Below, in pieces: positions 1-8,484 of a stretch of DNA of 55,713 bases (within the stretch, counting starts at the first letter, position 1; each line of letters starts with the position of its first letter). Below the pieces are notes generated by a model. The model worked only from the letters and a program-made list of their open reading frames with translations, was not told the DNA's origin and searched no databases. Source of the stretch: Candidatus Methanomethylophilaceae archaeon (lineage in GTDB: Archaea; Thermoplasmatota; Thermoplasmata; Methanomassiliicoccales; Methanomethylophilaceae); assembly GCA_050944155.1 (NCBI GenBank), contig JBMNQN010000006.1, forward strand, positions 1 through 55,713. The letters are read 5' to 3'. The translations under genes and the position numbers were made by a program.

Positions 1-2433
1 GGATACGAATGGGACGACGGCAGCGATACAAACAAAGAGATAAGCTGGGCCATTTTCAAAAAAGCTCTCACCGTAACGGCCGACAGTAAGAATATGGTCT
101 TTCTCGGAGCCGTTCCGGAATTCACTGCAACCTACAGCGGATTCGTCGGCGGAGAAACAGAAAAAGCACTTACCGGAAATCTGAGATTTAACTGCGGTTA
201 CGACGGCAAATCCTATCAGAAAACCTTTCTGATAACTCCGGAGGGGCTTGTCTCCGACAATTACGAAATAGAATTTGTCAGCGGAACTCTGACAGTCGGC
301 AGAATATCCGTAACCGTACCCGATGCGGCTGCGGATTTAGTCTATAACGGAGATTTTCAGACAGGGATTTCGGAAGGAACGGGGTACACCGTTTCCGGTG
401 GCTGCAAAAAGGATGCAGGGTCTCATGTGTCAACGCTAAAACTTCTGCCGGGACACGTATGGTCCGACAGTTCAGACAGTGATAAAAAGATAAGCTGGGT
501 CATTGCTAAAAAATCTCTTAAGGTAACGGCCGACAGCAAAATCATGAACTTTCTCGGAGACGTTCCCGTTTTCACCGTAACTTACAGCGGATTTGAAGGA
601 GAGGAAAACGAGTCCGTACTCGGCGGGACTCTGAAATTCCAATGCGGCTACAGCGGCAAGTACTATCAGGAAACGTTTTCCATAACTCCGTCGGGTCTTA
701 CTTCGGATAACTATGCTTTGACTTTCAAAGACGGAACCCTTACCGTACTGAGAGCATTGGCCGACGTACCCCGTCCGTTGACGGAACTCGTTTACGACGG
801 AACCGAGCAGACGGGCGTCGAAGGAAACGGATACGATGTCGTCAGAGGCAGCACGTACGCAGTCAACGCCGGAAAGTATACGGTATCCGTTTCTCCGAAA
901 GACGGATACATGTGGCCGGACGGAACCCTTGACATGAAAACTGCGGAATGGAGCATAGCCAGAAAGGAAGTTAAGGTCGTAACCGATTCCGCCGAAAAAG
1001 TCTACGACGGAAAGGCTCTGTCCGCCTCGGGACGGATCGAAGGACTCGTCGAAGGAGACGGAGTGATATTCAGAGTCACCGGCGAAAGGACCGTTACGGG
1101 TTCTTCGCCCAACACCTATGTTCTTACGTTCAACGGGACAGGAAACGTCGGGAATTACAAAGTAACCGAAAATCTTGGGACTCTGAAAATAACGGCGGCC
1201 CATCTGAACAGACCGGCGGCGGGCAAAACGCTGATCATGTACGACGGAACGGAAAAGACGTACCTTCCCGCCGGTTTCGTCGGAAACGCCATGAAAATAA
1301 GAGGAAACATCGGAACCGAACCGGGATTCTACGGCGTTACTGTTTCGATAAAAGATATGCTGAATTATTCGTGGACGGACGGTACGCAGTCCGAGATGAA
1401 GTTCGGATTCAGGATAGTTCCGAGAGTTCTTCCGGAAGCCGAAGCCATAGCTCCCGCCGTTTATACGGGAGAAAACCAGGTTCCGGTTCTTACGCTGAAG
1501 TACGGCGATACTATCCTCAGAGAAGGCAGAGATTACAGCGCAGTCTGGAACAGCGAGGATTTCGTCGGCGCCGGCACGTATACGGCTGACGTGAAGGGAA
1601 TCGGAGTCTATTCCGACTTTTACACTGTGGAATACGTCATAGAAAAAATACGTCTGAACAGACCGTCCGCCGATCCCTCGTCTTTCCTTTACGACGGAAC
1701 CGAGAAAACGTACAGTCCTGCGGGATTCGACGGAACCGTTATGGACATATCGGGAAACAAGAGAACGGAAAGGGGAACGCAGACCGTTTCCGTTTCGATA
1801 AAAGATAAAGCGAATTACGAGTGGAACGACGGCACGTCGGAAGATGCGGAATTCGTTTTCACCGTGGGGCGCCTGAGCATTCCGGAATTCGGAATAGACG
1901 GAACTGTGTACAGCGGAAACCGGCAGATACCCGAATTCGTCATCAGGGACGGTTCCAGGGTTCTGAAAGAGGGTACGGATTACGAAACGGTCTGGGACAG
2001 TACGGATTTCGTCTGCGCGGGAGTTTACAGCGCATCCGTAACGGGAATCGGCGTGTACTCGGGTACGCGCACCGTACCTTACGTGATAGAGAGAATCAAA
2101 CTTGACAAACCGTCGGAAGACAGCACGGTTTTCGTATGCGACGGAACCGAGAAGGTCTACTGTCCCGGAGGGTTCGACTGCGGACTCATGTGCATGGAAG
2201 GAAACACCGCGGTTTCCGCGGGAACCCATAACGTTTCCGTTTCCGTTAAAGACAGCGTAAATTACGAATGGGCGGACGGTACGCAGGACGTCCTGAATTT
2301 CCGTTTCGACGTTGCCGCCGTTCCGGAACCCCCGCTCGTGGAAAAATATGAAAGCATCCCATCCGTCACGGGAGCAATCGCGGCGGCTGCGGTACTGGCA
2401 CTGTGTTACGTATGCTTTTTCCGCAGACCGTGA
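1..2433 (+). CDS. Adhesin-like cell-surface repeat protein (MBG/Ig-like beta repeats, C-terminal TM anchor); 5' end lies outside the window
   Basis: Frame is open from base 1 (GYEWDDGSDTNKEISWAI...). ~150-aa repeats with YDG/YNG and 'LTVTADSK...F..TYSGF' motifs. Ends in hydrophobic AIAAAAVLALCYVCFF followed by RRP. Confidence 0.85.
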   Translation, partial: GYEWDDGSDTNKEISWAIFKKALTVTADSKNMVFLGAVPEFTATYSGFVGGETEKALTGNLRFNCGYDGKSYQKTFLITPEGLVSDNYEIEFVSGTLTVGRISVTVPDAAADLVYNGDFQTGISEGTGYTVSGGCKKDAGSHVSTLKLLPGHVWSDSSDSDKKISWVIAKKSLKVTADSKIMNFLGDVPVFTVTYSGFEGEENESVLGGTLKFQCGYSGKYYQETFSITPSGLTSDNYALTFKDGTLTVLRALADVPRPLTELVYDGTEQTGVEGNGYDVVRGSTYAVNAGKYTVSVSPKDGYMWPDGTLDMKTAEWSIARKEVKVVTDSAEKVYDGKALSASGRIEGLVEGDGVIFRVTGERTVTGSSPNTYVLTFNGTGNVGNYKVTENLGTLKITAAHLNRPAAGKTLIMYDGTEKTYLPAGFVGNAMKIRGNIGTEPGFYGVTVSIKDMLNYSWTDGTQSEMKFGFRIVPRVLPEAEAIAPAVYTGENQVPVLTLKYGDTILREGRDYSAVWNSEDFVGAGTYTADVKGIGVYSDFYTVEYVIEKIRLNRPSADPSSFLYDGTEKTYSPAGFDGTVMDISGNKRTERGTQTVSVSIKDKANYEWNDGTSEDAEFVFTVGRLSIPEFGIDGTVYSGNRQIPEFVIRDGSRVLKEGTDYETVWDSTDFVCAGVYSASVTGIGVYSGTRTVPYVIERIKLDKPSEDSTVFVCDGTEKVYCPGGFDCGLMCMEGNTAVSAGTHNVSVSVKDSVNYEWADGTQDVLNFRFDVAAVPEPPLVEKYESIPSVTGAIAAAAVLALCYVCFFRRP

Positions 2434-2486: not shown

Positions 2487-3665
2487 ATGTATCTGACACC
2501 CGAAGAGGAACGCATCCTCGGCGGCGAAGAAGGCGAATCCCGCCGGAAAGCCATGGAACTTCTGCTGGCTCTCGGAAAGATTTACGGAGCGGAAAACACG
2601 GTGAAAATAACTTCCGCCCACCTTTCCGGCGCCTCTTACAAAACCATAGGGGAAGGCGGACTGAAATATCTGGAGGACCAGGCTGCCGGAGGCGCTTCTG
2701 TATCGGTTCCTTCCACCCTGAATCCCGTGGGAATGGATCTCTGCAGATGGAACGAGATGCACATTTCCCCGGAGTTTGCGTCCAAACAGAAACGCATCGT
2801 CGAACTGTACGGGAAGATGGGCATCATGACCACATGTTCGTGCACTCCGTACGTGGGGCCCAACGTACCAAAGCTCGGAGACCACGTGGCATGGTCCGAA
2901 TCTTCGGCGCTGTCTTACGTGAATTCCTTCATAGGTGCCAGAACCAACAGGGAAGGAGGCCCGGGCGCTCTTGCCGCGGCGATACTCGGAAGAACGGCTA
3001 ATTACGGGCTTCATCTGGACGATAACAGGATTCCAGATGTCGTAATCGATTCGGATACGGACGGTTCGGTTTTCGGATATTCTCTTCTGGGTCAGGCAGT
3101 GGGAAGTACAATCGGCGGAAAGATTCCCTATTTCAGAGGACTGCGGAGCATGGGAACGGAAGAAGCCAAAGCTCTTGCCGCTGCCATGGCAGCATCCGGT
3201 TCGGTGGCCATGTGGCACGCCGAAGGAATCACTCCCGAAGCCGGGAAATACGACGTGTCCGGCAAAGAAGTCATACACATAGGAAAGAAAGAATTGGAGG
3301 AAGCCTACGAAAAACTGAACACCGCCGAAGACGTTCAGCTCATAGCTCTCGGTTGCCCCCATCTTACGGTCAAGGAGATAAAGGAAATAGCGGGAATCCT
3401 CAAAGGCAGGAAGAAGAAAAAGGACGCGCCGGAGATTTGGTTCTGCACATCGGCCGCCATAAGGGACCAATGTCCCGAAGAGGTAAAAATCCTAGAAGAA
3501 TTCGGGCCCGTTCTTGCCGATACCTGCATGGTGGTGGCTCCCATCGAAAATACCTTTTCCCGTACCGGAACCAACTCGGCCAAAGCCGGAAATTATCTCC
3601 CGACCCTGTGTTCCCAGAAAGTCATATGCAGGGACCTCGCAAAAATCCTGGAGGCGGTATATTGA
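2487..3665 (+). CDS. Aconitase X large subunit (DUF521), phosphomevalonate dehydratase large subunit
   Basis: Motifs TCSCTPY, AWSESSA, GARTNREGGP, GCPH and DTCMVV (three Fe-S Cys); coupled to the swivel-subunit gene. Confidence 0.9.
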   Translation: MYLTPEEERILGGEEGESRRKAMELLLALGKIYGAENTVKITSAHLSGASYKTIGEGGLKYLEDQAAGGASVSVPSTLNPVGMDLCRWNEMHISPEFASKQKRIVELYGKMGIMTTCSCTPYVGPNVPKLGDHVAWSESSALSYVNSFIGARTNREGGPGALAAAILGRTANYGLHLDDNRIPDVVIDSDTDGSVFGYSLLGQAVGSTIGGKIPYFRGLRSMGTEEAKALAAAMAASGSVAMWHAEGITPEAGKYDVSGKEVIHIGKKELEEAYEKLNTAEDVQLIALGCPHLTVKEIKEIAGILKGRKKKKDAPEIWFCTSAAIRDQCPEEVKILEEFGPVLADTCMVVAPIENTFSRTGTNSAKAGNYLPTLCSQKVICRDLAKILEAVY

Positions 3666-4432
3666 TACTGAAAGGACGGTCGATATCTTCGGGAAAAGCC
3701 GAAGGGGAGGTTCTGAAGCTCGAAGAATCCTTCAGTTTCCTGGGCGGAGTCAACGGTTCCACCGGGGAACTGAAAACCGGAGAAAACGTTTCCGGAAAAA
3801 TATTCGTGTTCCCCGCGGGCAGGGGAAGTACCGTGGGTTCCTATGTAATGTACGATCTGGCACTTCATAAAAAAGCTCCGGCCGCGGTTATCAACGAAAG
3901 CGCGGAAACCATAGTTGCGACGGGTGCGGTAATCTCTTCGATACCCATGGTCGACCGCATAGACGTCTCCCTTCTGAGGACCGGGGACAGGGTGCGTGTC
4001 GATGCGGACAGGGGAGAAATCGAGATTCTTAACGTGAAAACGGTAGAAACCGTATCCTCCGCCGTGGTCTGCGACGGAAAGGTTCTGCTGCTCAGGCGTC
4101 CGGACACAGCACGTTCGTTCCCTTCGGTGTGGTCGTTGGTTGCCGGCAAGATAGAGAAGGGAGAGACCCCGGAAGAAGCGGCCCGCAGGGAGATAATGGA
4201 AGAAACCCGGATATCCGTTTCCGAACCCGTTTCCCGGTGCGATTACATTCTCGTAAGGGAGGGGGAAATCATCTGGAAGGTGTATCCCTTCATGTACCGC
4301 GTGGACAGGGCGGAGCCCGTGCTGAACAAGGAAAATACGGAGTTCAGATGGGCGAAACCGGAGGAAATCAAAGACGTACCGGCCGTGGACATGACTTACG
4401 AAGTCGTAACCGAAATGATCGGGAAATCATAA
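3662..4432 (+). CDS. Aconitase X small (swivel, DUF126) subunit fused to a C-terminal Nudix hydrolase
   Basis: TTG start overlaps the upstream TGA (TTGA), with GGAGG at 3650-3654. SFLGGV and GRGSTVGSY swivel motifs; Nudix box GKIEKGETPEEAARREIMEETRI at 4145-4213. Confidence 0.88.
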   Translation: MILKGRSISSGKAEGEVLKLEESFSFLGGVNGSTGELKTGENVSGKIFVFPAGRGSTVGSYVMYDLALHKKAPAAVINESAETIVATGAVISSIPMVDRIDVSLLRTGDRVRVDADRGEIEILNVKTVETVSSAVVCDGKVLLLRRPDTARSFPSVWSLVAGKIEKGETPEEAARREIMEETRISVSEPVSRCDYILVREGEIIWKVYPFMYRVDRAEPVLNKENTEFRWAKPEEIKDVPAVDMTYEVVTEMIGKS

Positions 4433-7381
4433 GTCCGCGGCGGAAATTCCTATGGTGACGTCCTTTCCGGTAATGTCCCAGGTCTTGACTTCGTCTCCTC
4501 CGGGACTCTCCGTGAATATCAGGTTCGTAGCTCTGACCTCGGCCGCTATGTAATCCTTCCAGGTTTCCAGCAGGGAAACCAGGTGCCCGTCGGCTTTTAT
4601 GTCGCAGTTGATGAACTGTTCCACGTTGAGACTCATGTCTTTGCGCATCTGCTGTATTCTGCGGATGAGTTCTCTTGCGTAGCCTTCGGCCTCTATTTCC
4701 GGGGTTACGGAAAAGTCCACGAATACGTCTCCTTCGGAGAAGGGGACTTCGCTCGCATCTCCGTAATCGGGCCGTTTTTCGGGAGAAACGTACTCTATGT
4801 TTTTGATATTGGCCTGCTGTGCCAGTACGCCCTCGAACGTCTGTATGCACCTGTCGGTTTCTTCGGTTTTTCCCCGTATGCACACTCTGAGCAGGGGCCA
4901 TCTGAGCTTGCTTCCCATCTTCGCCCTTTCGGCGGCGATTATTTCGACTATGTTCTGAATCAGAAGCATGCTGCGCTCCAGTTCTCCGTCGATCAGGTCT
5001 TCGTTGACGGAAGGCCAGTCTTCCATGTGCACTGATTCGAGGGTTCCTCCCATGTGGCGGTAGACTTCCTCGGAGATGTGGGGCGCAACGGGAGCGAGAA
5101 CGATTGCGGTGTTCATTATAGCGTAATGGAGAGTGAAATACGAAGCGTTCTTGTCCTTCTCGGAATCTTCGTCTTCGGTCCAGGTTCTGTCCCTGACCAG
5201 ACGCACGTACCATCTGGAAAGGTCTTCCATTATGTAGTTCTCGAGGGAACGGGCGACCTTGTGGAGTTCCCTGGTTTCCATGAACGCGGTAACTTCCTTC
5301 TTCATGTTCTCGGTCCTGGAAAGCATCCACAGGTCCTCTTTTCTGAGATATTCCTTCATCTCTTCCGCGGTGTGGGCTTCCGGATCGTATCCGTCGATGT
5401 TCATGTACGTGGAAGCGAAGTTGACCACATTCCAGTAGGTGTTCAGAATCTTCCTGGCGTTCTTGGGACCGTCTTTCTGGAAGGCGGTGTCTTCCCAGGG
5501 AGCGTTCGACTTTATGAGATAGTATCTGAGGGAATCCGCGCCGGTCTGTTCTATTATTTCCAGAGGCTCAATTACGTTTCCCTTGGATTTGGACATCTTC
5601 TGACCTTTGGGATCCAGAACCCATCCGTGCATCATCACTTCTCTGTAAGGGGCGCGGTCGAAGGAGATGACTCCCGCTCCCAGCTGGGAATAGAACCATC
5701 CTCTTGTCTGATCGTGGGCTTCCACGATGAAGTCGGCGGGCCACCATCTTTCGAATTCCTCTTTCTTTGCGGGATATCCGAACTGTGCCCAGGAGGCCAC
5801 TCCGGAATCGAACCACACGTCGAGAACGTCGGGAACTCTGTGCATGGTTTTTCCGCACTTTTCGCATTCGAAGGTTACGCCGTCTATCCAGGGTCTGTGG
5901 GAATCCATGCCTTCGGTGTAACCGTCCCCTTCTCTGAGTTCGGAATACTGGCCGACGACTTTTCTGTTTCCGCAGGGACATTCCCAGACGGGCATGGGTA
6001 TTCCCCAGTACCTCTGTCTGGATATGCACCATTCCCTGGCGCCTTCCACCCAGTTTTTCTCTCTGGACTCTCCGGCCCAGTCGGGTACCCATTTCGCGCC
6101 GTCTATCTCTTCCAGCATTTTTTCCTTTACTTCGGGAACTTTCACGAACCACTGGCGGGTGTTACGGTAAATAATCGGAGATTTGCATCTCCAGCAGTGT
6201 CCGTATCTGTGCATCATTCTTCCGGCGCTGAAGAGTTTTCCGGTTTCTTCCAGATATTTTACGACGTCGTCGTTGACACCGCGGACTTTGCGTCCCGCCA
6301 TCGCGGGGAAATCTTCCGTGAATCTTCCGTCTTCTCCCACCGGGCAGAAGGGAATCATTCCGTACCTTTTTCCGGTTTCGTAGTCGTCCGGACCGAATCC
6401 GGGTGCCGTGTGCACCAGTCCCGTGTTGTCCTTTTCGACGTAGTCGGCGGTTACGACTTTGTAAACCCATTCGCTTCTTTTGACGGCGTCGACGGCGAAG
6501 GGCGGTTCGTATGCCGTACCTTCCAATTCCTTTCCCTTTATTTTTTCCAGAACTTCGAAGGTTTCGTATCCGCCCTGTTTCGTCACGTATTCGGCCTGGG
6601 ATTCCAGGACTATTGCGTCTTCGGATTCGTTTTCTTTAACGAAACGTACCTTTGCGTAATCCCCGTCCGGGTGCACCGCGACCGCCATGTTCGACGGCAG
6701 AGTCCAGGGAGTGGTGGTCCATATCAGAAGAGAACAGTCCTGTCCTTCGACGGGCATTCTGACTATCACGGAAGGATCGTTCTCGTCCCAGTATTCTATC
6801 TCCGCTTCGGCAAGAGCGGTTTCGCATCTGGGACACCAGGTTACGACTCTGTCGTCGTCGGTGAGCAGTCCTCTTTCGTAGGCCCGGGAGAGAGTCCACC
6901 AGGCCGATTCTATGTATTCGGGAGCGAGGGTCTGATAAGGATTGTCCCAGTCCATCCACACTCCCAGTTTTTTGAATTCTTCGGTCATCGCCGCTCTCAG
7001 GTCGAGGGCGTATTTGCGGCAGGTTTCCACGAATTTTCCGATTCCGATTTTTTCTTCGATTTCCTTTTTGGAACGGACGCCTATTTTTTTCTCCACCTGA
7101 ACTTCAATCGGAAGTCCGTGCATGTCGTATCCGGGCTGGTCTCTGACGTTGAGACCGTTCATTCTCCAGTAGCGTATGAGAATGTCCTTCACGGTCTTGT
7201 TCATGGCCGTGCCCAGGTGTATTTTTCCGGTGGTATAGGGAGGTCCGTCGCAGAAGTAGAAGTCTTTCCCTTCGGATCTCAGTTCTTTCGTTTTTCTGTA
7301 TAGATCCCCGTCTTTCCAGAACTGCTGGATTTCTTTTTCTATCTGCGGGGCACTGTAATTCGCACGGACCTGCTTTATCAT
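4427..7381 (-). CDS. ileS: Isoleucine--tRNA ligase (archaeal type)
   Basis: DGPPYTTGKIHLGT, WTTTPWTLPSN, WCISRQRYWG, DQTRGWF and KMSKS motifs. Confidence 0.96.
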   Translation of the reverse strand: MIKQVRANYSAPQIEKEIQQFWKDGDLYRKTKELRSEGKDFYFCDGPPYTTGKIHLGTAMNKTVKDILIRYWRMNGLNVRDQPGYDMHGLPIEVQVEKKIGVRSKKEIEEKIGIGKFVETCRKYALDLRAAMTEEFKKLGVWMDWDNPYQTLAPEYIESAWWTLSRAYERGLLTDDDRVVTWCPRCETALAEAEIEYWDENDPSVIVRMPVEGQDCSLLIWTTTPWTLPSNMAVAVHPDGDYAKVRFVKENESEDAIVLESQAEYVTKQGGYETFEVLEKIKGKELEGTAYEPPFAVDAVKRSEWVYKVVTADYVEKDNTGLVHTAPGFGPDDYETGKRYGMIPFCPVGEDGRFTEDFPAMAGRKVRGVNDDVVKYLEETGKLFSAGRMMHRYGHCWRCKSPIIYRNTRQWFVKVPEVKEKMLEEIDGAKWVPDWAGESREKNWVEGAREWCISRQRYWGIPMPVWECPCGNRKVVGQYSELREGDGYTEGMDSHRPWIDGVTFECEKCGKTMHRVPDVLDVWFDSGVASWAQFGYPAKKEEFERWWPADFIVEAHDQTRGWFYSQLGAGVISFDRAPYREVMMHGWVLDPKGQKMSKSKGNVIEPLEIIEQTGADSLRYYLIKSNAPWEDTAFQKDGPKNARKILNTYWNVVNFASTYMNIDGYDPEAHTAEEMKEYLRKEDLWMLSRTENMKKEVTAFMETRELHKVARSLENYIMEDLSRWYVRLVRDRTWTEDEDSEKDKNASYFTLHYAIMNTAIVLAPVAPHISEEVYRHMGGTLESVHMEDWPSVNEDLIDGELERSMLLIQNIVEIIAAERAKMGSKLRWPLLRVCIRGKTEETDRCIQTFEGVLAQQANIKNIEYVSPEKRPDYGDASEVPFSEGDVFVDFSVTPEIEAEGYARELIRRIQQMRKDMSLNVEQFINCDIKADGHLVSLLETWKDYIAAEVRATNLIFTESPGGDEVKTWDITGKDVTIGISAADL

Positions 7382-7455: not shown

Positions 7456-8484
7456 TCAGAACCAGGCGTCCAGGGAACGCTGGGAACGTTTCGCTTTGTT
7501 TCTGGTTCTGCTTTTTTCAATACGGTCCAACGCGGCTTCCACTCTGGAAGGGGAGAAATCGTATTCCGTGAGCATGTCCAGAACTCCCTTGCGGTCGGTT
7601 TCTCCGGCGGCAACGGCATAGTCGTCGGAACTGGGGCCGTCGAGGAAAATGTTCTTTATTTCTTCGTACTCGGGAATCTCTTCGTTCAGATGTGCCAGCA
7701 CTTTTTCCGCGGTGCCGTGTTTTTTGATAAGGGCCAATCCCTTCTTGGGACCGATTCCTTTGATCCCGGGGTTGAAATCGGTTCCTATGAGGATTGCCAT
7801 GTCGACAAGCTGCTCCCTGGTTATTTCCAGAGTTTCGAGGAATTCTTCGAGTCTTATCAGTTCTGTTTTGACTTCCCTGTACTGGTCGCGTCCGGGGATT
7901 TTCCTTCTTCCAGTGATGGTGACGTTTCTGAGAAGCACGGGCGCTCCGAAAAGAAGGGAGTCGTAATCCTGGGAGGCGGAAGCCCACACGTCTCCTTTCG
8001 AGCACATGTACGCGCCCTGTGCCTCCCCTTCTCCGGGAGCCTTCACAATAGGTATACCCAGATACGAGAGGAGTTCTTTCGACGAAGACAGAATTTCCGG
8101 TGTCATTCTGGAAGTCTGCTGGGCCTTGGAGAACGCTTTTTTGATATCGCCTTCTTCGATGGCCTGTTCCCATTCTTCTTCGGCTTTGAGACGGCGTTCC
8201 CGTCTTTCGTCTATAGTATCTTTTTTTAGTTCGCTGGATACCCCGTCGAAAACGTAAACCGGTTCTATTCCCGCTTCGATAAGATTCGCTGTTCTGTAAA
8301 GAATTCCCGAAAGATGGGAAGTCACCCGTCCCGACGTGTCCCGCAGGGGATAGCCGTCCGGCTGTCTTATTATCGAAAGGAACTGGTAGATGGTGTTGTA
8401 GGCGTCTACGGCGATCTTCTTTCCGTTCAGTTCGGAAAGTTCGACGTTCTTGGGTTCGGTGATGCCGGACAGGTTTATTCCCAT
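7456..8484 (-). CDS. fen: Flap endonuclease 1
   Basis: DAYNTIYQFLSIIRQPDG, EGEAQ, SQDYDSLLFG, GTDFNPGIKGIGPK; C-terminal PIP box QRSLDAWF. Confidence 0.96.
   Translation of the reverse strand: MGINLSGITEPKNVELSELNGKKIAVDAYNTIYQFLSIIRQPDGYPLRDTSGRVTSHLSGILYRTANLIEAGIEPVYVFDGVSSELKKDTIDERRERRLKAEEEWEQAIEEGDIKKAFSKAQQTSRMTPEILSSSKELLSYLGIPIVKAPGEGEAQGAYMCSKGDVWASASQDYDSLLFGAPVLLRNVTITGRRKIPGRDQYREVKTELIRLEEFLETLEITREQLVDMAILIGTDFNPGIKGIGPKKGLALIKKHGTAEKVLAHLNEEIPEYEEIKNIFLDGPSSDDYAVAAGETDRKGVLDMLTEYDFSPSRVEAALDRIEKSRTRNKAKRSQRSLDAWF

Follow-up and report, generated by a model that had tools for sequence, protein, structure and literature searches.

Fusion of a predicted phosphomevalonate dehydratase small subunit to a Nudix domain, ancestral in much of the archaeal class Thermoplasmata

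The precursors of archaeal membrane lipids are made by a route specific to archaea, in which phosphomevalonate dehydratase (AcnX) has a key place, and the enzyme that follows it needs prenylated flavin mononucleotide (prenyl-FMN). To our knowledge, the source of dimethylallyl monophosphate (DMAP), a precursor of this cofactor, is not settled in archaea. Here we describe a gene of a gut methanogen, a Candidatus Methanomethylophilaceae archaeon (Thermoplasmatota; Thermoplasmata; Methanomassiliicoccales) in which the small subunit of the dehydratase runs on, in a single frame, into a Nudix domain. The gene lies on the forward strand of contig JBMNQN010000006.1 (assembly GCA_050944155.1), whose positions 1 to 55,713, the whole stretch of DNA that was analyzed, are called the window below. 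The fusion is a genuine one and goes back to an ancestor of much of the class.

Described relatives exist for both halves of the protein. In the dehydratase of Thermococcus kodakarensis (TkAcnX), the structure paper proposes Ser62 of the small subunit, written Ser62(S), as the general base and gives Thr63(S), Val64(S) and Leu27(S) as likely contacts of mevalonate 5-phosphate (PMC8184944). As for Nudix enzymes, one report states that MM_0920 of Methanosarcina mazei gave no substrate in a 41-compound screen and showed only very low activity on 8-oxo-dGTP (PMC3744803), and another source lists its function as undetermined (PMC5389931); such a null screen says little on non-nucleotide substrates. 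The E. coli enzymes NudI, NudB, NudF, NudJ and NudM are reported to convert isopentenyl diphosphate (IPP) as well as dimethylallyl diphosphate (DMAPP) (PMC6058358). Prenyl-diphosphate hydrolysis is thus a common side or main activity of Nudix enzymes, which serves as precedent for what follows and not as evidence.

The fused gene, its parts and the large-subunit gene before it are arranged in the window as follows.

2487..3665, plus strand: large subunit of phosphomevalonate dehydratase (AcnX), 392 aa; from PF04412 and alignment to TK1249.
3650..3654, plus strand: GGAGG, a putative ribosome-binding-like site that precedes the TTG start by 7 nt; read from the sequence.
3662..4432, plus strand: fused gene for AcnX small subunit and Nudix, 256 aa and stop; from the open reading frame (ORF) and Pfam.
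3662..4033, plus strand: swivel (small-subunit) domain, residues 1-124; from alignment to TK1248 and Foldseek.
3827..3835, plus strand: codons of Ser56-Thr57-Val58, the general-base serine and its substrate-binding neighbours; from alignment to TK1248.
4034..4429, plus strand: Nudix domain, residues 125-256; from PF00293 and fold matches.
4145..4213, plus strand: Nudix box, G162 to I184; read from the translation.

The N-terminal half has the features of a small subunit throughout. Pfam places AcnX_swivel (PF01989) at residues 24-97 with 88.5 bits against a cut-off of 27, and although the NCBIfam equivalog NF003046 is not reached (149.5 bits vs a cut-off of 163), its alignment takes in profile positions 4-131 of 132 with residues 3-124, and the swivel domain is complete. 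The same residues align end to end with TK1248 (7cnr_B, chain positions 4-131 of 134; 134.5 bits), and Foldseek matches the domain to 7cnr_F, B and D with target TM of 0.90-0.92, root-mean-square deviation (rmsd) of 0.8-1.1 Å and 59-60% identity. Within and beside the GRGSTVGSY motif, Ser56, Thr57, Val58 and Leu27 align with Ser62(S), Thr63(S), Val64(S) and Leu27(S) of TkAcnX, the chain numbering of the 7cnr_B alignment being one higher than that of the structure paper. The protein encoded upstream is a full-length AcnX (PF04412, 482.9 bits; 333 bits to TK1249, 7cnr_A) which keeps the Fe-S cysteines and mevalonate 5-phosphate-binding residues, namely Cys119, Cys290, Cys347, Asn79, Glu138-Ser139-Ser140, Lys366 and Tyr370; the matching residues in T. 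kodakarensis are Cys110, Asn79, Glu129-Ser130-Ser131, Lys361 and Tyr365, with roles taken from PMC8184944. A first-pass annotation, made from the letters of the window alone, had called the pair a phosphomevalonate dehydratase, and the alignments of both subunits bear this out with the residues of that enzyme in place.

The host genome (1.04 Mb, 27 contigs, 92% complete) was searched for AcnX, UbiD-type, UbiX, isopentenyl phosphate kinase (IPK) and mevalonate diphosphate decarboxylase (MDD)-family genes. One UbiD-type gene is present, together with a UbiX (a 184-aa ORF with a PF02441 match, separate from CoaBC) and an IPK (229.9 bits, cut-off 120), which supports the pathway named in the first-pass annotation, and no match to an MDD-family decarboxylase was found in the genome. 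The fused gene is the sole PF01989 match of the genome. Since the only swivel domain is the fused one and these pathway genes are present, the fused protein must act as the dehydratase small subunit. We regard it as settled that the gene encodes this subunit, with its activity predicted.

The reading frame and the start of the fused gene are also clear. Its TTG start (3662-3664) shares two bases with the TGA stop of the large-subunit gene (3663-3665), relatives start at the same place with the pattern M-x-L/I-x-G-R, and this geometry suggests translational coupling of the two genes. A start at the upstream GTG 3212 was ruled out, for the extra stretch would run across the large-subunit gene out of frame, and relatives use the position of the TTG. 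A single frame joining the swivel domain (GRGSTVGSY, with the serine kept) to a near-canonical Nudix box was what had been claimed at the outset, and all checkable details of that description proved correct. An AlphaFold2 model of the fused protein, built on 60 relatives, has a mean pLDDT of 96.6 and a pTM of 0.87, and leaves a linker of about three residues from the last swivel strand to the first Nudix strand.

The C-terminal half carries PF00293 (NUDIX) at residues 133-237 (66.4 bits, cut-off 21.1). Its Nudix box, at residues 162-184, reads G162-x5-E168-x7-R176-E177-I-M-E180-E181-T-R-I, and its sole departure from the consensus GX5EX7REUXEEXGU is an R in place of the penultimate G. Among 12 Nudix domains of the clade no change is seen at G162, E177, E180, E181 and E224, and in 60 sequences these residues, and also R146, W157 and W230, are conserved to at least 90%, with R199 invariant. 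The domain has all of the metal-binding glutamates, the clade as a whole keeps the catalytic ones, and judged by these residues the domain is probably an active pyrophosphatase.

The closest fold to the Nudix domain is 3grn_B (target TM 0.88, rmsd 1.8 Å, 23% identity), and the next Foldseek matches, among many solved Nudix hydrolases, are BdRppH, an Ap4A hydrolase and NudI. By sequence the closest solved Nudix is BdRppH (3ees; E 1.2e-9, 28% identity). Every match of the fused protein to a curated Nudix subfamily model falls far below its cut-off (NudI model, 32.8 bits vs 95; NudB model, 35.2 vs 103). Membership was accordingly rejected for NudI, for the MutT 8-oxo-dGTPases (TIGR00586, 30.9 vs 97.9; NF008044, 32.6 vs 148) and for type 1 IPP isomerase, which has a Nudix fold (NF002995, 26 bits vs 127). 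The genomes of Methanosarcina, located through a published 16S probe, reach only 59-69 bits against the profile of the clade, and their top match is the MM_0920 orthologue, which scores 262 bits to 3grn_A.

These neighbours bring in the strongest rival to a role in isoprenoid synthesis, namely a housekeeping Nudix with nucleotides or the ends of RNA as its targets, in sanitation or decapping of the MutT, NudI or RppH kind, that was fused merely as a neighbouring gene with co-expression as the only consequence. Its closest solved relatives in sequence and fold (3ees, an Ap4A hydrolase, MutT-type enzymes and NudI) are what such a function would predict. On the other hand, MM_0920 gave no substrate in the screen cited above, with only very low 8-oxo-dGTP activity, and the host genome has another small Nudix that could cover nucleic-acid roles. 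This ORF of about 116 aa, directly downstream of the fibrillarin gene, is the only other Nudix of the genome and is a candidate holder of the nucleic-acid-directed Nudix role.

C4:62502-62678 (locus L006, about 1330-1680), minus strand in both: fibrillarin-linked Nudix; from the search of the host genome, G000.

The distribution of the fusion was then traced from single proteins to the whole class. A search covering 5.8 billion proteins listed 120 relatives, and both domains, within 239-392 residues, are present in all 120 among the matches listed; the source names are Methanomethylophilaceae, Methanoplasma, Methanomassiliicoccaceae or Thermoplasmatales archaea. Within the order, the fused protein matches 252 of the 261 genomes, among them 143 of the 145 of good quality, and all 40 genera are represented; the nine genomes without a match are 61-93% complete. 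Four other families of the order were sampled with five genomes, and each of the five matches at full length, from query residues 1-3 to 242-253. In a sample of the class the match extends to 185 of 201 genomes, and full-length fused forms occur in many families of non-methanogens outside the order; the tallies of this sample take in two genomes flagged as unpublished (G334 and G419), and no result depends on these alone. An assembly artefact absent from relatives, which the first-pass annotation had named as one outcome that would undo its proposal, and likewise a chance frame, are ruled out by the recurrence of the two-domain architecture across relatives, order and class. Public annotation already displays the architecture, as 'predicted aconitase with swiveling domain/NUDIX' at JGI and as 'DUF126 domain-containing protein' or 'NudI' at NCBI; a discussion of the AcnX small subunit-Nudix fusion was not found in a literature search of papers outside subscription journals. 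One genome, G287, has two copies of the pair of large-subunit and fused small-subunit genes, on contigs C2 and C87; given a listed contamination of 7% for this genome, the second of them may come from another organism.

The AcnX large subunit was found in 145 of the 201 class genomes, and the families that lack it wholly or in part make a natural experiment on the Nudix half. The families concerned are given below by their handles.

Family f11: Nudix-clade gene in 7 of 7 genomes (E 1e-20 to 1e-24); AcnX large subunit in 0 of 7; UbiD-type gene in 2 of 7; UbiX over cut-off in 0 of 4 tested.
Family f14: 25 of 27 genomes match the query at some level, with a relic form in G267; AcnX large subunit in 7 of 27; UbiD-type gene in 25 of 27; UbiX over cut-off in 1 of 1 tested (G267).
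Family f22: weak generic Nudix matches only; AcnX large subunit in 0 of 24; UbiD-type gene in 23 of 24, of the longer, higher-scoring type.

The seven f11 genomes are 85-99% complete. Instead of AcnX, f11 has an MDD-family decarboxylase (168-179 bits against a cut-off of 171.35, with one of three above it), and G267 of f14 likewise holds one. Two genes that lie beyond the fused gene in the window, outside the system itself, serve as synteny anchors.

4427..7381, minus strand: isoleucyl-tRNA synthetase (IleRS), convergent with the fused gene; ORF.
7456..8484, minus strand: flap endonuclease FEN1, the second anchor; ORF, named by sequence likeness.

In two f11 genomes a Nudix gene faces IleRS and FEN1 in the order seen in the window, with XPG_N and XPG_I domains at the place of FEN1 (L091, L092), and the large-subunit gene upstream is gone. 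This Nudix gene, here called the relic, aligns in two f11 genomes to the family profile over positions 1-257 with 238-260 bits. In the relic proteins the serine motif is gone, but the glutamates of the Nudix box remain. In a structure model of one relic the Nudix half is confident and residues 21-80 are moderate (pLDDT 57-79); Foldseek gave NudI as the top fold match and no AcnX small subunit among the matches listed. The homology of the N-terminal domain to the swivel is read from the profile alignment over positions 1-257 together with the synteny. (An ORF at L094:4902-5867 was set aside because it lies on the wrong strand.) We read the relic, from sequence and gene order, as the ancestral fused gene: upon the loss of its partner the swivel half apparently decayed, and the Nudix half would still be under selection. 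Retention of the Nudix after loss of the dehydratase indicates that its function is independent of the dehydratase, and as f11 has no UbiX in the four genomes tested and mostly no UbiD, the function there is independent of prenyl-FMN too. It is settled that the Nudix half is the more durable half of the fused protein.

This result bears directly on the proposal that the Nudix is a dedicated DMAP supplier, which would turn DMAPP into DMAP solely for UbiX and the prenyl-FMN of the UbiD-type anhydromevalonate phosphate decarboxylase. The proposal has attractions: the host genome has UbiX and one UbiD-type gene, the step of the fusion partner directly precedes the prenyl-FMN enzyme, and UbiD, AcnX large-subunit and small-subunit genes are clustered in several families. 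Yet all seven f11 genomes keep the gene with no AcnX, five of them without UbiD and the four tested without UbiX over the cut-off, so DMAP for prenyl-FMN, which the first-pass annotation had offered as one possible function, does not hold as the whole of it. Families f17 (3 of 3 genomes) and f50 (5 of 5), conversely, have the dehydratase without the Nudix clade at E <= 1e-25, which means that the pathway runs without the Nudix. A trace demand for cofactor also sits poorly with a one-to-one fusion to a pathway enzyme, and the nearest Methanosarcina relative of the Nudix is MM_0920, apparently another gene than that of the M. mazei enzyme discussed at the end of this text. A dedicated supplier is, in our judgement, improbable.

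As for the UbiD-AcnX clusters, in several families (for example G283:C44, G262:C102, G294:C130 and G313:C4) a stretch of about 3 kb contains, all on the same strand, the UbiD-type gene, the AcnX large subunit and the small subunit in fused or separate form, a clustering that supports the pairing of dehydratase and decarboxylase. UbiD-family frames of the class sample fall into two size classes, one of about 425-440 aa and 175-200 bits in AcnX-bearing genomes and the other, found in f22, f14 and f23, of about 480-500 aa and 250-285 bits; both classes occur together in some genomes.

A further rival holds that the Nudix domain is not catalytic at all and serves as a ligand-sensing or structural appendage which regulates or stabilizes the dehydratase. 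The rigid packing of both domains predicted by the model (pTM 0.87) would suit such a role, and some fused relatives, P0130 and P0171 among them, keep the swivel domain with a spoiled Nudix box. The catalytic glutamates, however, are conserved in the fused protein and most of the clade, the Nudix stands alone in other classes, and it is the Nudix that stays conserved when the swivel decays, all of which makes an appendage highly improbable. Such proteins, in which the swivel motif is intact, show the reverse of what is seen in the relics, and their pattern suggests that subfunctionalisation followed duplication in some lineages.

Beyond the class, the Nudix clade is found across the phylum. 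An exhaustive search of 1.84 billion representatives returned 34 proteins at E <= 1e-30. A second population, of 240-268 residues, matches the fused protein only from about residue 90 on; Pfam sees NUDIX alone in these proteins, their N-terminal halves align with the swivel without GxGST, and those that carry a name are labelled 'NUDIX pyrophosphatase', from Thermoplasmata or Candidatus Sysuiplasma. For the free-standing Nudix relatives no cluster names were found in this search. A profile search of the phylum (201 genomes, 155 of them outside the class; E <= 1e-25) showed that in other classes the clade consists of free-standing proteins of 130-150 residues, which reach 130-193 bits over profile positions of about 131-260, and that the small subunit is encoded separately there, elsewhere in the genome. 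By hand count, the 155 genomes outside the class comprise about 47 with both genes, about 15 with the small subunit only, about 5 with the Nudix only, about 86 with neither and 2 that are unclear; such counts are of relatives and not of independent events, and they give a pattern and not a test. The survey of the swivel (DUF126) plus NUDIX architecture that had been suggested as a check thus gives fused forms in many families of the class and free-standing Nudix proteins in the other classes of the phylum.

As for the neighbours of the free-standing genes, in family f53 all three genomes have a row of AcnX large subunit, AcnX small subunit, an ORF without known family and a free-standing Nudix. 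The middle ORF, of about 280-320 aa (L100, L101 and L102, in G474, G464 and G489), gave weak coiled-coil-like matches only, and neither a Pfam family nor a solved relative was found for it. At one f34 locus a cis-prenyltransferase gene stands directly 3' of the Nudix, and other loci of f34, f65 and f44 have genes for geranylgeranylglyceryl phosphate (GGGP) synthase, a geranylgeranyl reductase (GGR)-like protein or UbiA at a distance of up to 4 kb. A different association is seen in f34 and f65, where at 10 of 10 loci (L103, L105 and L117-L124) the free-standing Nudix comes directly behind a PINA-like PIN/KH ATPase (808 bits to NF010335), with gene ends that often overlap; NF010335 is named for Holliday-junction branch migration, so this pairing points to nucleic-acid work. 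In f44 the co-oriented neighbour is purQ at 10 of 10 loci (L104 and L106-L114), five of them with an esterase-like gene between. Taken as a whole, the genomic context of the Nudix pulls both ways.

For the housekeeping alternative, then, there are the PINA-like ATPase pairs, a set of gene contexts that varies by lineage as for a portable module, and a gene that outlasts the loss of AcnX, UbiD and UbiX in f11. Speaking against it are the class-wide fusion with its very short linker and confident fixed domain arrangement (pTM 0.87), the gene row of f53 and the co-occurrence of the clade with the small subunit across the phylum. We consider a housekeeping function a serious possibility, nearly as likely as the hydrolysis of C5 prenyl diphosphates.

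This hydrolysis is nevertheless the reading that we tentatively favour: the Nudix may hydrolyse IPP and DMAPP to isopentenyl phosphate (IP) and DMAP as a control on their pools, and DMAP for UbiX would be a by-product where UbiX exists. The C5 prenyl diphosphates from the end of the pathway would be its most likely substrates, with IPP going to IP and DMAPP to DMAP, and the Nudix would work opposite IPK, as a relief valve or to set the size of the pools. In UbiX-bearing genomes, the host included, the DMAP could also feed the prenyl-FMN of the UbiD-type decarboxylase, which would come as an added gain and not as the only purpose. By being joined to the small subunit, the Nudix would have its dosage coupled to that of a pathway enzyme. 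A more specific form of this reading, a built-in isoprenoid homeostat in which a Nudix held rigidly on the small subunit hydrolyses DMAPP and IPP on the spot, returns excess IPP to IP and gives UbiX its DMAP for the cofactor of the next enzyme, seems doubtful to us.

Several of the results given above weigh against pool control. The closest solved Nudix by sequence is an RNA pyrophosphohydrolase, all named Nudix subfamily models score far under their cut-offs, the Methanosarcina genomes score low against the clade profile, and no characterized prenyl-diphosphate Nudix is shown to be orthologous; the substrate of the Nudix cannot be read from sequence. The f11 relics keep the Nudix without AcnX, UbiD or UbiX, and f17 and f50 keep the dehydratase without the Nudix. 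The isoprenoid neighbours are mostly convergent with the Nudix gene, differ by family and are conserved only within a family, which is inherited synteny, and at 10 of 10 loci each, purQ is the co-oriented neighbour in f44 and the PINA-like ATPase directly precedes the Nudix in f34 and f65. The tie between Nudix and pathway that the first-pass annotation drew from the fusion accordingly stands in part: the Nudix recurs as a fusion, in the f53 row of large subunit, small subunit, ORF and Nudix, and in phylum-wide co-occurrence with the small subunit, and an exclusive DMAP role falls away.

For completeness, the part of the window before the large-subunit gene (1-2433, plus strand) is the 3' part (810 aa, with the frame open where the window begins) of a gene for a large, repetitive protein of surface type with recurring modules of about 100 residues, motifs such as YDGTEKTY and YxVxVSxKD, and a C-terminal hydrophobic anchor.

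New here are the phylum-wide Nudix group, the f53 gene row and the f11 relic with its decayed swivel and intact Nudix residues. A class-wide, active-looking fusion of dehydratase and Nudix is a concrete and cheap candidate for assay; cultured hosts are available in the same order, and the free-standing and relic versions of the Nudix are natural controls. If the Nudix does hydrolyse IPP or DMAPP, a control or cofactor-supply step is added to the pathway, which would be useful for engineering the ATP-saving archaeal route, and the homeostat, if true, would identify the source of DMAP in a large archaeal class. If the Nudix acts elsewhere, the locus is a warning that a fusion conserved throughout a class need not imply a shared pathway. 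Where lineages have exchanged one pathway for another, the relics that still stand at this locus make a neat case of domain decay after partner loss.

Compared with known systems, the dehydratase genes are of ordinary layout. TK1249/TK1248 of T. kodakarensis (PDB 7CNR, 7CNS) and Ape_2087.1/Ape_2089 of Aeropyrum pernix have the same two-gene arrangement and the same domain families, but their small subunits stop at about 131-134 residues, whereas here a Nudix domain of 132 residues follows with hardly any linker. For the Nudix itself, MM_0920 (PDB 3GRN, UniProt Q8PYE2) has the closest fold and is the best Methanosarcina match to the profile, yet it is free-standing and only 23% identical. BdRppH, the RNA pyrophosphohydrolase of Bdellovibrio (PDB 3EES), is the closest solved sequence, with a likeness that is generic to the Nudix fold. 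The E. coli enzymes NudI, NudB, NudF, NudJ and NudM are small single-domain Nudix proteins, and the NudI and NudB models are among the best partial matches of the fused Nudix; it is a member of neither (33-40 bits vs cut-offs of 95-103), and the E. coli enzymes have other primary substrates, which are nucleotides. An IPP/DMAPP-preferring Nudix of M. mazei, said to be MM_2582 and to have appeared in Biosci Biotechnol Biochem in 2022, has reportedly been proposed as a DMAP supplier. The first-pass annotation had alluded to such a methanogen enzyme, and the nearest Methanosarcina relative found here, MM_0920, is apparently a different protein. The reported enzyme is free-standing, appears to come from a different gene than MM_0920, and belongs to a host with the same modified mevalonate pathway.

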